Source of the DNA: a virus
Lineage: Duplodnaviria; Heunggongvirae; Uroviricota; Caudoviricetes
Strand: one strand, 5' to 3'
Length of the DNA: 4,723 nt
Virus record (IMG/VR): IMGVR_UViG_3300029721_000076
Below, in pieces: positions 1 through 4,723 of the stretch (position 1 is the first letter of the stretch; each line of letters opens with the position of its first letter). The notes beneath the pieces are model-generated. The model did no database searches. It saw nothing but the letters and a program-made list of their open reading frames with translations, and was not told the DNA's origin. Position numbers and translations under genes: made by a program.

Positions 1-135
1 CGGACTTCGGGGGAAAAACGAGTATTTTTAGTCATCCTGTTTACCTCTTTCTCAGGAAGTTTAGTCTCCAGGATTCCCGGGGCGGTTCAGTATGGCGAGA
101 ACGCAGGTTATCTGGCTGAAAGAGGGGGTAATTAA
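1..135 (+). CDS. 3' end of upstream nin-region ORF (partial, product unknown)
   Basis: Frame 1 is open from the window edge to TAA at 133-135 (…GSLVSRIPGAVQYGENAGYLAERGGN*), ending 3 nt before the rusA GTG. GAGGGGG at 122-128 would serve as the rusA RBS. An alternative 16-codon frame-2 ORF (ATG 92 to TGA 140-142, [16 protein letters not shown]) overlaps the rusA start as GTGA, so the true frame is ambiguous. Confidence 0.3.
   Translation, partial: RTSGEKRVFLVILFTSFSGSLVSRIPGAVQYGENAGYLAERGGN
65..90. repeat. Left copy of a 26-nt imperfect inverted repeat (partner 4644-4669)
   Basis: TCTCCAGGATTCCCGGGGCGGTTCAG here versus the reverse complement of 4644-4669, TCTCCAGGAAACCCGGGGCGGTTCAG: 24 of 26 identical. 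Confidence 0.7.
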
Positions 136-138
136 GGC

Positions 139-501
139 GTGAATACTTACCACATCACACTACCCTGGCCGCCGAGCAATAACCGCTACTACCGCCATAA
201 TCGAGGGCGCACGCACATCAGCGCAGAAGGGCAGGCATACCGCGATAACGTCGCCCGAATCATTAAAGGCTCAATGCTGGATATCGGTCTGGCTATGCCT
301 GTGAAAATCCGCATTGAGTGCCACATGCCGGATCGCCGTCGCCGTGACCTGGATAATCTACAAAAAGCCTCTTTTGACGCACTCACCAAAGCAGGTTTCT
401 GGCTGGATGATGCTCAGGTCGTTGATTACCGCGTTGTGAAGATGCCTGTTACCAAAGGTGGGAGGCTGGAACTGACCATCACCGAAATGGGGAATGAATG
501 A
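139..501 (+). CDS. rusA: Crossover junction endodeoxyribonuclease RusA (Holliday junction resolvase)
   Basis: 120-aa [29 protein letters not shown]…[11 protein letters not shown], recognised as the RusA family of lambdoid prophage DLP12. GTG start at 139 preceded by GAGGGGG; stop TGA at 499-501. Confidence 0.92.
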
Positions 502-638
502 TGTTTGAGTTTTATATGGCAGAACTTCTTCGCCACCGCTGGGGGCATCTGCGCTTATATCGTTTCCCCGGTTCTGTTTTGACCGATTACCGAATACTGA
601 AGAATTACGCCAAAACCCTGACAGGAGCAGGAGTATGA
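498..638 (+). CDS. ylcG: Small DLP12-type prophage protein YlcG (46 aa)
   Basis: ORF not in the supplied track (below its length cutoff). ATGATG at 498-503 overlaps the rusA stop (ATGA). Translation [46 protein letters not shown], stop TGA at 636-638. Position between rusA and Q matches the known ylcG locus. Confidence 0.5.
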
Positions 639-723
639 AGTCAGAGATAACAATCAACTAATACTGTTTTGTTGATTTTTGCTTGTAATTGGCGTTCTGG
701 TCTGATTTTTGTGGAGTAAGTTG

Positions 724-1107
724 ATGCGTGATATTCAGATGGTTCTTGAGCGTTGGGGAGCGTGGGCGGCTAATAATCATGAAGATGTGACCTGGTCGTC
801 CATTGCCGCCGGTTTTAAGGGATTAATTCCTTCAAAAGTAAAATCTCGCCCGCAATGTTGTGACGATGACGCTATGATCATTTGCGGGTGCATGGCCCGT
901 CTGAAAAAGAACAACAGCGATTTGCACGATTTATTAGTAGATTATTATGTAGTCGGTATGACATTCATGTCACTGGCAGGTAAGCATTGCTGCTCTGATG
1001 GTTATATCGGGAAAAGGTTACAGAAGGCTGAGGGCATAATTGAAGGGATGTTAATGGCATTAGATATCCAGTTAGAGATGGATATCGTTGTTAATAACTC
1101 TAATTAA
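724..1107 (+). CDS. quuD: Late-gene antiterminator Q (phage 82-type)
   Basis: [27 protein letters not shown]…[14 protein letters not shown] (127 aa from ATG 724), recognised as 82-type Q / QuuD. GGAG at 713-716 lies 7 nt upstream of ATG 724. The track's 709 start is a TTG and less likely. Stop TAA at 1105-1107. Confidence 0.9.
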
Positions 1108-1124
1108 TATGCCAATTGTTTACT

Positions 1125-1158
1125 AAAAATTATTAAAAATGGGGCGTTGAGACGCCCC
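1125..1158 (-). terminator. Candidate intrinsic terminator for the nmpC transcript
   Basis: Stem GGGGCG (1141-1146) / CGCCCC (1153-1158) with 6-nt loop. On the minus strand it is followed by ATTTTTAATAATTTTT (complement of 1125-1140). About 140 nt downstream of the nmpC stop. Confidence 0.4.
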
Positions 1159-1246
1159 CAAAAATAAAGGGTAATATATAACAGAAGGTTTATATAGTTA
1201 GAAGCAAGGTTGTGCTTCTAAAGGAAGTGGCTTGAGGGAGCCACTT

Positions 1247-1288
1247 ATATGTTGGGGAGGCAACGCCTCCCGCAACATATCTTTTTCG
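1247..1288 (+). terminator. Candidate intrinsic terminator downstream of Q (possible tR'-like)
   Basis: Long imperfect hairpin: 1247-1260 pairs with 1266-1280 (about 14 bp, one bulged G, 5-nt loop caacg, GC-rich core GGGGAGG/CCTCCC), followed immediately by CTTTTTCG at 1281-1288 on the + strand. No U-tract on the minus strand. Confidence 0.55.
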
Positions 1289-1296
1289 TAATCAGA

Positions 1297-2379
1297 TTAG
1301 AACTGGTAAACCAGACCTACAGCGACGATGTCGTCGGTATCAATATCAGCTGTTTTGGTAAACTTACTATCGTCAATTAAGTTGATTTTGTAATCAACAA
1401 AAGTGGACATGTTTTTATTAAAGTAGTAAGTAGCACCGACATCGACATACTTGACTAAGTCTCGGTCACCATGAACACCAAGGTCTTTACCTTTTGACTG
1501 AAGGTAAGCAACAGATGGGCGCAGACCGAAGTCAAACTGATATTGTGCTACTGCTTCAAAGTTTTGTGCTTTGTTTGCAATATGGTTATTACCAAAAACG
1601 GTCATATTCTGAGTTTCAGAATATGTGGTAGCCAGATAGATATTGTTCGCATCATATTTCAGGCCTGCAGCCCATACTTCCGCATTTTTGCCGGAGGCAT
1701 TGAATTTGCTCTTACCATAGGCGACCTGACCGTCAGTGCGATCTGATTTAGCATAGGTTGCACCCACGCCGAATCCTTCATACTCATAAGTAGTGGAGAA
1801 ACCGAAACCATCACCATTGGCTTCAGTTACGTCAGTGCGGTCATTTTTACCCTGATACTGAGCAGCAAAGTTCAGGCCATCGACCAGACCAAAGAAGTCG
1901 TTGTTACGATAAGTTGCAACACCAGTAGTGCGACCAGTCATGAACACATCTGTTTGGGTCCAGGTATCACCACCGAATTCTGGCAGAACGTCAGTCCACG
2001 CACCGATGTCGTATGCTACACCGTAGTTACGGCCGTAATCGATTGAGCCGTAATCACCAAATTTCAGGCCTGCAAATGCAAGACGGGTTTTGTCTTTGGA
2101 AGAACCTTGAGATTCAGCGCGGTTGCCTTTGAATTCATATTCCCACTGACCGAAACCAGTCAGTTGATCGTTGATTTGGGTTTCACCTTTGAAGCCAAGA
2201 CGGGCATAAGTAGTATCACCATCATCTGCATCATTAGAGGAGAAGTAGTGCTTAGCATTAACTTTCCCGTACAGATCCAGCTTGTTACTGTCTTTATTAT
2301 AAATTTCAGCTGCCTGAGCAGACATCGCCATCAGTACTGATGCAGCTACAGCAGAAATTGCCACTGTTAATTTTTTCAT
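1297..2379 (-). CDS. nmpC: General outer-membrane porin, NmpC/OmpD family (OmpC/OmpF/PhoE superfamily), apparently intact
   Basis: 360-aa product [23 protein letters not shown]|[17 protein letters not shown]… ending …[12 protein letters not shown]. It has a typical signal peptide, the classic porin N-terminus and a C-terminal Phe. Start ATG at 2379 (complement of CAT 2377-2379) with AAAGGG upstream. The track's longer 380-aa start adds an unlikely 20-aa extension before the signal peptide. Confidence 0.92.
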
Positions 2380-2470
2380 CGTGAGCCCTTTTTTTGAACT
2401 ATTATTAAAAAATGATGTCACTGCGCGATAAATATTCATCTAATCAATGTGATTATTTCAAGATGTAAGT
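2380..2470 (-). promoter_or_regulatory. Putative nmpC 5' UTR / promoter region with candidate CRP half-site
   Basis: AT-rich sequence directly upstream of the nmpC ATG. It contains AATGTGAT (TGTGA at 2449-2453), matching one CRP half-site; the second half-site is weak. No unambiguous -10/-35 pair could be fixed by eye. Confidence 0.3.
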
Positions 2471-2658
2471 TTTGGTTTCTCGTTTGATTTGTGAAGTAGA
2501 TCTCTATTTTTATCTGAACTTTTTTCTATCGAATCCTATTCATGGCTCTTGGCTGAATAAAAATAAATCTATTAGCCAATTTATATTAATGGCTGTTATT
2601 TATAAGTGCTCTATAATTTGAAGGTTTAATTTAAATCGGCTAAAAATAACGCTGGAAA

Positions 2659-2680
2659 TTATTTGTTGGTTATTTGTTGA
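2659..2680. repeat. Tandem direct repeat of an 11-mer (TTATTTGTTGG / TTATTTGTTGA)
   Basis: Two adjacent copies, 10/11 identical, inside the AT-rich ORF-free region. Confidence 0.6.
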
Positions 2681-2806
2681 GATTTGCTTATGTATTTGTA
2701 GTGGTGTTTTCAATACTCGGTAGCATTCTCGCAAATATCATTTAGTGGTTTACGTACGTAAAAAATTGGTTATGCTGTTAAGAGTGGTTACTTCGTCACA
2801 CAGCTT

Positions 2807-2840
2807 AAACCCGCCGTCGAGCGGGTTTTTCCATTTTTTG
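2807..2840 (+). terminator. Candidate intrinsic terminator upstream of the lysis cassette
   Basis: Stem AAACCCGC (2807-2814) / GCGGGTTT (2821-2828) with loop CGTCGA, followed by TTCCATTTTTTG (2829-2840). The minus-strand side has no U-tract. No + strand CDS lies upstream of it. Confidence 0.5.
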
Positions 2841-2951
2841 AGTCTCGATATTAGCTGATAACCCAATACCTGAGTTATTCACTGACTCCGAGTCTGTTAC
2901 GTTTCGTAGTATTCCCTCAATTTACACCCGCTTTGTCTGCGAGGTGGGGTT

Positions 2952-3167
2952 ATGAAATCCATGGATAAGTTAACAACGGGTGTCGCCTATGGCACCTCAG
3001 CAGGTAGTGCCGGGTACTGGTTTTTACAGCTGCTAGATAAAGTCACGCCCTCACAGTGGGCGGCAATTGGAGTGCTGGGTAGCCTGGTATTTGGCCTGCT
3101 GACGTACCTGACAAACCTTTATTTCAAGATTAAAGAAGATAAGCGCAAGGCTGCGAGAGGTGAATAA
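2952..3167 (+). CDS. essD: Class II holin (pinholin, phage 21 S-type) with dual-start motif
   Basis: 71-aa [34 protein letters not shown]…[13 protein letters not shown]. Met1 and Met4 (ATG 2952 and 2961) form the S21 antiholin/holin dual-start pattern. Two hydrophobic segments are present. RBS GAGGTGG at 2941-2947. Confidence 0.9.
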
Positions 3168-3664
3168 TGCCTCCATCATTACGAAAAGCCGTTGCTGCTG
3201 CTATTGGTGGCGGAGCAATTGCTATAGCATCAGTGTTAATTACTGGCCCAAGTGGTAACGATGGTCTGGAAGGTGTCAGCTACATACCATACAAAGATAT
3301 TGTTGGTGTATGGACTGTATGTCACGGGCATACAGGAAAAGACATCATGCTCGGTAAAACGTATACCAAAGCAGAATGCAAAGCACTCTTGAATAAAGAC
3401 CTTGCCACTGTCGCCAGACAAATTAACCCGTACATCAAAGTCGATATACCGGAAACAACGCGCGGCGCTCTTTACTCATTCGTTTACAACGTGGGTGCTG
3501 GCAATTTCAGAACATCGACGCTTCTTCGCAAAATAAACCAGGGCGATATCAAAGGCGCATGTGATCAGCTACGTCGCTGGACATATGCTGGCGGTAAGCA
3601 ATGGAAAGGTCTCATGACTCGTCGTGAGATTGAGCGTGAAATCTGTTTGTGGGGTCAGCAATGA
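3167..3664 (+). CDS. rrrD: SAR endolysin (phage 21 R-type lysozyme with N-terminal signal-arrest-release domain)
   Basis: 165-aa [42 protein letters not shown]… with a Gly/Ala-rich weakly hydrophobic N-terminal segment and a lysozyme-like body. The start overlaps the holin stop (TAATG). Confidence 0.92.
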
Positions 3665-4122
3665 ACAGAGTAACCGCGATTATCTCCGCTCTGGTTATCT
3701 GCATCATCGTCTGCCTGTCATGGGCTGTTAATCATTACCGTGATAACGCCATTACCTACAAAGCCCAGCGCGACAAAAATGCCAGAGAACTGAAGCTGGC
3801 GAACGCGGCAATTACTGACATGCAGATGCGTCAGCGTGATGTTGCTGCGCTCGATGCAAAATACACGAAGGAGTTAGCTGATGCGAAAGCTGAAAATGAT
3901 GCTCTGCGTGATGATGTTGCCGCTGGTCGTCGTCGGTTGCACATCAAAGCAGTCTGTCAGTCAGTGCGTGAAGCCACCACCGCCTCCGGCGTGGATAATG
4001 CAGCCTCCCCCCGACTGGCAGACACCGCTGAACGGGATTATTTCACCCTCAGAGAGAGGCTGATCACTATGCAAAAACAACTGGAAGGAACCCAGAAGTA
4101 TATTAATGAGCAGTGCAGATAG
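3661..4122 (+). CDS. rzpD: Rz-type inner-membrane spanin (i-spanin)
   Basis: 153-aa product from ATG 3661 ([23 protein letters not shown]…KYINEQCR) with an N-terminal transmembrane segment followed by a charged, helix-prone region. The start overlaps the endolysin stop (ATGA). The track's 3649 start is a non-ATG extension. Confidence 0.88.
3881..4063 (+). CDS. rzoD: Rz1-type outer-membrane lipoprotein spanin (o-spanin), embedded in rzpD
   Basis: 60-aa ORF wholly inside rzpD in another frame: [20 protein letters not shown]|TSKQ… with a lipobox (VVGC) and proline-rich mature part (PPPPPAW…PPPDW), the hallmark of Rz1. Confidence 0.85.
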
Positions 4123-4153
4123 AGCTGCCCATATCGATGGGCAACTCATGCAA

Positions 4154-4447
4154 TTATTGTGAGCAATACACACGCGCTTCCAGCGGAGTATAAATGCCTA
4201 AAGTAATAAAACCGAGAAATCCATTTACGAATGTTTGCTGGGTTTCTGTTTTAACAACATTTTCTGCGCCGCCACAAATTTTGGCTGCATCAACAGTTTT
4301 CTCCTGTCCAATTCCCGAAACGAAGAAATGATGGGTGATGGTTTCCTTTGGTGTTACTGCTGTCGGTTTGTTTCCAACAGTAAACGTCTGTTGAGCACAT
4401 CCTGTAATAAGCATTGCCAGAGCGGCAGAAAACAACATTTTTTTCAT
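4154..4447 (-). CDS. borD: Bor family lipoprotein (serum-resistance protein, Iss homologue)
   Basis: 97-aa product from ATG 4447: MKKMLFSAALAMLITGC|AQQTFTVGNKP…EARVYCSQ with a lipoprotein signal peptide and lipobox LITGC. AGGA RBS upstream on the minus strand. The track's 113-aa version is an unlikely upstream extension. Confidence 0.9.
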   Translation of the reverse strand: MKKMLFSAALAMLITGCAQQTFTVGNKPTAVTPKETITHHFFVSGIGQEKTVDAAKICGGAENVVKTETQQTFVNGFLGFITLGIYTPLEARVYCSQ

Positions 4448-4563
4448 CTTATTATCCTGCATTGTTAAAAACGGCAGAATCCTATGTGACAACAATTAAA
4501 CGATAGTTAAATGGATTGATGAAAATTAAAACTATATAGGTGGATGCTCAGCCTATTGGAGGA

Positions 4564-4571
4564 GGGGGGGG
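4564..4571. repeat. Homopolymeric G8 tract (C8 on minus strand) in the borD upstream intergenic region
   Basis: GGAGGGGGGGGCAC read directly from the sequence; lies between the right-edge ORF stop and the borD start. Confidence 0.85.
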
Positions 4572-4604
4572 CACTCAGAATCCTGTGGAATGAAATAAAC
4601 CGCT

Positions 4605-4723
4605 CTATCTGTCCATTACCCTTTTAGCTGCGCTGTATCGTCGCTGAACCGCCCCGGGTTTCCTGGAGAGTATTTTATCTGTGAACTCAGGCTGCCAGAT
4701 CATCGTTTCCGATGGAAGCATAA
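4605..4723 (-). CDS. Partial ORF at right edge (ybcV-position gene, product unknown)
   Basis: This is the only minus-strand frame open at the edge: …MLPSETMIWQPEFTDKILSRKPGAVQRRYSAAKRVMDR*, stop TAG (complement of 4605-4607). The ATG at 4721 may be internal, so the gene probably continues beyond the window. Confidence 0.3.
   Translation of the reverse strand, partial: MLPSETMIWQPEFTDKILSRKPGAVQRRYSAAKRVMDR
4644..4669. repeat. Right copy of the 26-nt imperfect inverted repeat (partner 65-90)
   Basis: Reverse complement matches 65-90 at 24/26 positions; similarity decays outside the core. Confidence 0.7.

Follow-up and report, generated by a model that had tools for sequence, protein, structure and literature searches.

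A probable late promoter unit of the Q933W/QuuD branch, displaced from its antiterminator gene by a porin block in a DLP12-type prophage

The viral record IMGVR_UViG_3300029721_000076 (4,723 nt, referred to here as the window) covers the late-control and lysis region of a lambdoid prophage of the DLP12/PA-2/434 type, in which a 572-bp gap (2380-2951) separates the porin gene nmpC from the lysis gene essD. A preliminary description of this gap pointed to a + strand terminator in AT-rich DNA and proposed either a small RNA or a relocated late-promoter unit. Our analysis supports, with a probability of about 0.8, that 2380-2747 is the upstream control region of nmpC (also known as lc), and that 2748-2840 is a displaced late promoter unit with its terminator, belonging to the Q933W/QuuD branch of antiterminators. 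RNA polymerase would start at 2783, and in the absence of QuuD most transcripts would stop at about 2830-2840, giving an RNA of about 50 nt and leaving essD-rrrD-rzpD off. When QuuD is present, it would bind a dyad at the promoter and be loaded onto polymerase paused right after the start, and the QuuD-modified polymerase would pass the hairpin into the lysis genes.

Alignment with related phages indicates that two parts of different origin, meeting at 2747/2748, make up the 572-bp gap. A distant BLAST search of 2380-2951 against phage records gave 36 records covering at least 80% of the query, all of which were full-length matches of the 434/PA-2/DLP12 type, including 434 and PA-2 themselves. 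About 320 further records, mostly Stx-converting (Shiga toxin) phages, matched positions 369-451 of the query only, corresponding to window 2748-2830. Since whole-length matches were found only in 434/PA-2/DLP12-type phages while the roughly 320 porin-less records share just 2748-2830, the AT-rich DNA appears to travel with the porin. Homology with porin-less phages begins at 2748, which sets the right junction. At the left junction, every relative aligns through GAGATGGAT (up to window 1083, residues ...LEMD) and diverges straight after. The block between these junctions (1084-2747, about 1.66 kb) contains a new Q C-terminus, the nmpC terminator and 3' untranslated region (UTR), nmpC itself and the nmpC upstream region. 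By these two alignments, it is an accessory block that entered between the antiterminator gene quuD and its target promoter. The idea of a relocated late-promoter unit was therefore correct in kind, as the gap of 1,633 bp between quuD and the unit is filled by an inserted porin block with junctions at 1083/1084 and 2747/2748. A different insert is found in phage PhiR40_1 at the point equivalent to 1083/1084. The Q reading frames of different phages are common up to ...LEMD and then continue into unrelated C-terminal tails of 0-24 residues, and in 933W-type phages this tail is encoded by the -35/dyad of the promoter itself.

The late promoter pR' lies on the + strand at 2749-2776, with a -35 element TTTACG (2749-2754), a 16-bp spacer and a -10 element TATGCT (2771-2776). 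Column by column, it can be aligned with the pR' annotated in phage SC370 (AF548457 494-522) and in VT2-Sakai, and window 2748-2840 as a whole aligns with the annotated pR' and first terminator of both. The SC370 homologue is annotated as a putative pR' (494-522) followed by a terminator (555-577), and it overlaps the final codons of Q. Across genera, the -10 element takes the form TATnnT. The TATAAT at 2612-2617 had been put forward as the promoter of the unit, but this does not hold, as the unit is found in many loci without that DNA.

For the Stx1 and Stx2a prophages of strain Sakai, Sy, Lan & Tree (2020, PMC7547250) used differential RNA sequencing to locate the pR' start and Term-seq to locate the 3' end 258 nt further on. 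Exactly 258 nt likewise separate the A located 7 nt past the Sakai -10 element (TATCAT) from the final T of the second (StxS) terminator, and this A corresponds to window 2783. The coordinates of Sy et al. refer to an older record version, and the equivalence of the start was set by this geometry and by the independent SC370 annotation. We infer that transcription in the window starts at A 2783, which is K-12 position 577229 (K-12 coordinate = window + 574446). The K-12 MG1655 sequence is collinear with 2380-2951 without indels and with six substitutions, none of them within 2740-2951. No feature is annotated between nmpC and essD in the RefSeq record of K-12, no promoter or terminator is annotated between the porin gene and essD in the phage 434 record, and the K-12 end-mapping supplements published in eLife in 2021 contain no entry for the DLP12 locus. 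The unit is thus an unannotated example of a known element in a very well-studied genome. Matches to the region were found in 2,662 of 5,426 complete E. coli genomes, K-12 DLP12 included. In one viral contig (L082:6124-6995), about 790 bp are inserted between the dyad/-35 (6124-6137) and the -10 element, where the unit resumes at about 6913, such that the late promoter is split.

The intrinsic terminator at 2807-2840 (+ strand) serves as the promoter-proximal tR' in our interpretation. It consists of a hairpin at 2807-2828 with eight pairs, five of them G-C, and a free energy of folding of -12 kcal/mol, followed by the T-rich tail TTCCATTTTTT up to 2840, 111 nt before the essD ATG (2952). Terminator-like sites are not rare by themselves, with 8 found in the window against 3.9 ± 2.2 expected, and we take this one as real because it is conserved. 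Across 45 diverse sequences the helix is 93.7% paired, with changes on both sides in five of seven pairs, while slid controls, where the partner was moved by 1-3 columns, reached a pairing of 34-52% only. The hairpin and T-run passed a strict terminator test in 55 of 74 distinct leaders, at a median position of +34 to +57. Together, the covariation and the presence in these leaders show that a promoter-proximal terminator is the conserved state of this Q branch. The preliminary description was therefore right about the terminator, and also about the kind of element, a short non-coding unit of the lambda pR'-tR' type, as seen from the alignment with the 933W/Sakai pR'. The length of about 200 nt given for its RNA was not upheld. 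With a promoter at 2749-2776, a start at about 2783, a leader of about 24 nt ahead of the hairpin and termination by 2840, the terminated RNA would be about 50 nt. Downstream of the terminator, 2841-2951 forms the leader of the lysis operon up to the essD start codon; it is 97-100% conserved in 57 variants, and a promoter scan found no promoter-like site within it.

The composition of the gap was also as first described. The GC content is 0.265-0.275 over 2401-2700 (200-nt windows) compared to 0.33-0.56 elsewhere, and the only open reading frames (ORFs) overlapping 2440-2951 are 37-49 amino acids long. One ORF of 37 amino acids (2745-2858) covers both promoter and terminator, but its frame is not conserved, as relatives differ by 1-nt and variable-length indels. 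An Rfam scan of the whole window (E ≤ 1) gave a single match, a sub-threshold Trp_leader (20.8 bits against a gathering score of 41, E 0.9), which is driven by the terminator hairpin.

QuuD (quuD, 724-1107, + strand; PF06530, E 7.5e-54) is the Q antiterminator cognate to the unit, and its last eight codons (1084-1107) lie in the insert. It is 78-81% identical to Q of 933W/VT2-Sakai-type phages and distantly related to Q21 (PDB 6p18/6jnx, E 1e-7). The preliminary description had suggested phage 82 for comparison, which was the wrong choice given that QuuD belongs to PF06530, the Q21/Q933W family. For the linkage between Q and the unit, we compared loci with Q homologues at 43-99% identity, of which 80 were viral and 80 came from species-representative genomes. 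In nearly all of these roughly 160 loci, the unit profile gave one match, on the strand of Q and downstream of it. The loci are spread across Enterobacterales, with genera such as Citrobacter, Pantoea, Xenorhabdus, Photorhabdus, Proteus, Providencia, Yersinia and Erwinia.

The gap between the Q stop codon and the unit measures -33 to +38 bp in one group of loci and 0.6-2.9 kb in the other, where it consists almost entirely of - strand ORFs. The unit directly adjoins Q in roughly half of the relatives, and it lies next to Q in about 40 loci other than the window. As in other Q cassettes, the Q gene of the window is located upstream on the same strand and an intrinsic terminator precedes the late genes. 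The promoter unit is not immediately beside Q, and with nmpC on the opposite strand in between, the window belongs to the long-gap group. A profile search of the window found no second copy of the unit near quuD. Since the displaced layout occurs with other cargo in about 30 other loci, adjacency of Q and unit is typical and not obligatory, and on this comparison the gap between them is a recurrent slot for - strand cargo. Among the cargoes are a complete PD-Lambda-5 defence pair (L142:6404-8682; E 1e-164 and 7e-125), an AriA/GajA/NsnB-like ATPase (L138:6393-9158) and an NA37-like protein (L148:6346-8704), while the gaps of Stx2a_1447 and PhiR40_1 (L003:1384-2947 and L004:2490-2936) hold unknown proteins.

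A perfect 14-bp dyad with the half-sites TTTACGT and ACGTAAA is located at 2749-2762 (-34 to -21) and overlaps the -35 element. It occurs once per locus, always within the late promoter unit. The palindrome changes in sequence from one Q clade to another but retains its symmetry and position. Loci with TTTACG(TA/AT)CGTAAA have a Q recognition helix of the form CSD(G/T)xIGK, whereas GCGTACGC is found with CSDGT(I/V)RK, GCGGTCCGC with KKDEKxIRIE, GTAATTAC with GISHNEVxKR, TGGAATTCCA with GVSHTQILKR and TTTCGTAACGAAA with KCSEGKIRQN. The helix-turn-helix itself is a predicted one, assigned from a weak match of a relative to the Pfam family of sigma-70 extracytoplasmic function (ECF) region 4 and from the published Q21 structure.

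Within the main clade, the dyad centre matches Q residue 93 in 36 of 37 loci, where TA is found with G93 (n = 19) and AT with T93 (n = 17), with one exception. Centre and residue switch together about ten times on a tree made from the remaining Q protein. Five loci with an insert between Q and unit follow the same rule, namely the window, L099, L126, L130 and L131. Because of this covariation with a single residue of the Q recognition helix, the dyad is probably the Q-binding element (QBE). No paper defining a QBE for the 933W-type Q was found in the literature available to our search.

Two relatives have other helices. Phage ev066 (L006:3379-3510) encodes a Q 87.5% identical to QuuD with the helix RSDCWIGRM and has no copy of the late promoter unit; its Q gene is instead followed by another promoter-like sequence and by a terminator similar to the StxS tR'. 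In PhiR40_1 (L004), the helix RSDCWVGRL occurs with the imperfect dyad TTTACAATCGTAAA.

These comparisons can be combined into a broader proposal, to which we would give even odds. The Q933W/QuuD branch would read a dyad overlapping the -35 element, presumably as a symmetric dimer and unlike the direct repeat of Q21. G93 or T93 at the start of the recognition helix would read the TA or AT centre, which would create several mutually exclusive Q/pR' specificities. The ancestral unit would consist of the promoter and a terminator about 25-60 nt downstream, and - strand cargo (porins, the PD-Lambda-5 defence system, AriA/GajA-like ATPases) would recurrently occupy the Q-unit junction, where it is shielded from late transcription.

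Two further conserved elements surround the predicted start. The hexamer AAGAGT (2780-2785, -3 to +3) is part of a near-invariant GWTAAGAGTG and includes the start A at 2783. No variant seen departs from the A at hexamer position 2 or the T at position 6, and AAGAGT is the sole candidate for the -10-like, sigma-dependent pause element that Q proteins of the Q21 and lambda types require. Next to it, a conserved GTG-N10-CAC dyad (2784-2799, +2 to +17) might act at the DNA level or form a stem at the 5' end of the RNA. Pairing reaches 79.9%, but as the outer pairs never vary, the two roles are inseparable. As an RNA stem it was not supported, since the pair counts are uninformative and RNAalifold does not predict it.

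Several observations weigh against the proposed late promoter unit or parts of it. The pR' is weak by consensus (8 of 12 positions) and was not called by the promoter scan, and the start and stop positions in the window are placed by homology. In Sakai lysogens, the 258-nt transcript passes the equivalent hairpin without Q (PMC7547250), and the hairpin is therefore an incomplete block there. Additionally, 30 of 81 DLP12/PA-2-like loci, e.g., L010, L015, L045 and L087, carry a G to T or A change in the 3' arm of the terminator (equivalent to 2821-2825, GCGGG to GCTGG), which weakens the stem to -5.8 kcal/mol compared to -12.0 kcal/mol for the intact form found in the window. The proposed binding to a dyad differs from the mode of Q21, the one relative with a solved structure. 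Exchange of a linked "helix plus site" cassette could also account in part for the agreement between dyad and residue 93, although such exchange would still imply that helix and dyad are functionally paired. Finally, the literature describes another promoter for the lysis operon, of the RpoE type and near 2428 (PMC7918800).

This last point leads to an alternative where the lysis operon is mainly transcribed from an RpoE-dependent promoter with its +1 at about 2428, the hairpin acts as an attenuator in a 5' UTR of about 520 nt, and 2749-2776 holds no functional promoter. PMC7918800 cites Rueggeberg 2015 for RpoE control and describes a DLP12 reporter construct spanning -121 to +650. Its primer Pdlp12Fw, given as position -121, maps to 2307-2326 in the window, which places the implied +1 at about 2428. 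A GAACT-N16-TCACT motif resembling an RpoE-type promoter precedes this position at 2396-2422 (+ strand; 2396-2428 including the implied +1) and is invariant in 56 of 57 variants. However, this invariance is uninformative, because the whole of 2380-2460 is about 100% conserved. An RpoE transcript would also still stop at the hairpin, as Q-type antiterminators load only at their own promoter-proximal site. Moreover, K-12 carries an identical pR'-type unit whose dyad continues to agree with residue 93 of QuuD, and both points argue for a maintained function. We therefore consider it unlikely that the RpoE promoter takes the place of pR', although it is compatible with the late promoter unit as an extra input. 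The same paper, citing Rueggeberg 2013, states that the DLP12 lysis operon is under a phage Q-type antiterminator.

The AT-rich region at 2380-2747 (GC 0.27) occurs only with the porin and shows several signs of being regulatory DNA. The suggestion that it is subject to H-NS silencing is supported for K-12, where all three chromatin immunoprecipitation (ChIP-chip) studies list H-NS as bound to the intergenic region of nmpC and essD. The same K-12 region is one of 78 "promoter islands", a class its authors call transcriptionally suppressed, and by our coordinate conversion the island spans approximately window 2460-2813. In the PA-2 record, a CRP site is marked at a position equivalent to about 2488-2508 of the window. 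Among 57 distinct variants, invariant blocks alternate with short hypervariable stretches in the porin upstream region. The pattern is footprint-like over 2540-2700, where TGTTATTTAT, CTATAATT, AATTTAAA, AAAAATAAC and the second 11-mer copy are invariant, with hypervariable stretches of 4-8 nt between them.

The TATAAT and the 11-mer repeat noted previously were both confirmed in this region. The tandem 11-mer TTATTTGTTGG is present in two copies at 2659-2679 (Tandem Repeats Finder: 1.9 copies, 100% match). Its second copy is nearly invariant, while the first is variable, with a G to A change in about 19 variants and G to T in K-12. On the - strand, the best candidate by eye for an nmpC promoter, the reverse complement of 2624-2629 with that of 2599-2604, has a 19-bp spacer, which is too long.

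The TATAAT (2612-2617, + strand) is the basis for a second alternative, in which an independent RNA of about 210-220 nt extends from this hexamer to the terminator at 2807-2840, either as a moron-associated small RNA or as the true pR'-tR' RNA. The terminator lies downstream on the same strand, and CTATAAT is intact in 50 of 57 distinct intergenic variants even though the 6-8 nt on either side are hypervariable, which looks like constraint. However, the hexamer has neither a -35 element nor an extended -10, and the consensus scan called no sigma-70 promoter in 2380-2951. Single hexamers of this kind are at chance level, with two TATAAT found in the window against 3.8 ± 2.0 expected. The viable phage PA-2 carries CTATGAT at this site, and the surrounding DNA belongs to the H-NS-bound promoter island class described as suppressed. 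The terminator is furthermore not tied to the TATAAT, as its unit is found in more than 40 loci and about 320 phage records without the AT-rich DNA. Taken together, this makes such an RNA improbable as a replacement for the late promoter unit, although it could exist alongside the unit. The conserved CTATAAT and the 11-mer may instead have a role in porin regulation, or the former may act as a weak + strand promoter.

It is highly improbable that the hairpin merely insulates the lysis genes against upstream or early read-through while the sequence before it binds another regulator (a repressor or CRP) and no Q-dependent promoter exists: the 1986 PA-2 record does label the GTG-N10-CAC dyad (there +1 to +21) a CRP site, with GTG and CAC as half-site cores, but the half-site spacing is 8 bp and not the 6 bp of the CRP consensus, the supposed CRP sequence is the start of the mapped Sakai pR' transcript, the unit invariably accompanies a Q gene and shares its orientation, and the upstream dyad co-varies with Q.

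The genes surrounding the late promoter unit have the order expected from the prophage type. Upstream of quuD are rusA (139-501, +) and ylcG (498-638, +), and the insert cargo nmpC is located at 1297-2379 on the - strand, where its ORF corresponds to the gene called porin, lc or nmpC in 434, PA-2 and K-12. The late (lysis) genes on the + strand, assigned by ORFs, Pfam matches and existing annotations, are essD (2952-3167), rrrD (3167-3664) and rzpD/rzoD (from 3649/3661 to 4122, with rzoD embedded at 3881-4063), and they are followed by bor/iss on the - strand (4154 to about 4447). The nmpC 3' UTR (1141-1296, - strand) closes with a strong - strand terminator at 1141-1158, and no Rfam family matched it in the scan. 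We take this 3' UTR to be the IpeX RNA, which is reported to lower OmpC/OmpF (Castillo-Keller et al. 2006). IpeX is named among the ompC regulators in PMC3333887. Both ends of the window (1-90 and 4644-4723) are termini of IS3-family insertion sequences (IS), with inverted arms (49-90 and 4644-4685) that are 79% complementary and an IS orfA starting near position 34 and reading leftward. Matches to relatives such as VR50 are limited to 90-4644, and the rusA-quuD-nmpC-lysis-bor segment therefore lies between two IS copies in the source strain.

If the assignment is correct, the promoter and terminator at 2748-2840 show where Q control acts on the DLP12 lysis genes, which other work has linked to biofilm and vesicle phenotypes. 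The moron would have entered between an antiterminator gene and its target site while leaving the recognition pair unbroken. What is newer in this work is comparative: a candidate QBE in the form of a dyad with a one-residue specificity code, the conservation of a terminator close to the promoter, and a cargo slot at the Q-pR' junction, which also houses defence systems. The relation between dyad centre and residue 93 offers a simple, testable code for this Q family, in which Shiga toxin expression is under the control of the 933W-type members. The comparison also sets a widespread terminated leader of about 50 nt apart from the StxS extension of Stx phages.

The lambda pR'-6S-tR' region follows the same logic as proposed for the window, i.e., a constitutive promoter before the late genes, a short terminated RNA without Q, promoter-proximal loading of Q and subsequent read-through. 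The terminated RNA of lambda is 194 nt compared to about 50 nt here. Lambda Q belongs to PF03589, which is unrelated to the PF06530 of QuuD, and there is no sequence similarity between the two units. Additionally, the lambda QBE lies between the -35 and -10 elements and has no dyad, whereas the dyad of the window lies over the -35 element.

Phage 21 is a closer relative, since Q21 (6P18/6P19, 6JNX) and QuuD both belong to PF06530 and have a common N-terminal half. Q21 binds between the -35 and -10 elements and loads at a sigma-dependent pause just after the start. Phage 21 has a QBE upstream of the -10 and a -10-like pause element after the start, and the candidate AAGAGT of the window sits further upstream than the pause element of either lambda or phage 21. 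The Q21 QBE is a direct repeat (TGAGCA twice, at about -21 and -13) bound by two protomers on different DNA faces, in contrast to the perfect dyad at -34 to -21 in the window. The location of the dyad agrees with such a site, but its symmetry does not. QuuD has 127 amino acids and Q21 162. The alignment of the two is limited to QuuD residues 8-86, and their DNA-binding regions may therefore be different.

The pR' region of 933W, VT2-Sakai and SC370 is the homologous system, and it has in common with the window the -35 with its dyad, the -10 element, the block GWTAAGAGTGGTTAC at the start site, and the first GC hairpin together with the T-run. In Stx phages, the unit overlaps the last Q codons (a gap of -21 bp), while in the window it is found 1.63 kb downstream, past the porin gene. 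The dyad centre is AT with T93 in the Q of Stx phages, and TA with G93 here. Stx phages furthermore have about 200 nt more sequence and a second terminator, yielding the 258-nt StxS-L and the 74-nt StxS-S. The 258-nt StxS is a pR'-tR' transcript whose 74-nt 3' fragment binds Hfq and contains an rpoS-activating seed. The window has no such extension, and the holin gene begins 111 nt after the first terminator. Its similarity ends after the first ~50 nt of StxS and it does not include StxS-S, and we therefore rejected an identification with StxS. The hairpin in common is the first terminator-like hairpin of Stx phages (+25 to +50). It is distinct from the tR' described by Sy et al., and their paper contains no discussion of the first hairpin. 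Among about 170 loci, StxS-S is confined to those of Stx phages, and by this comparison the StxS extension is specific to them.

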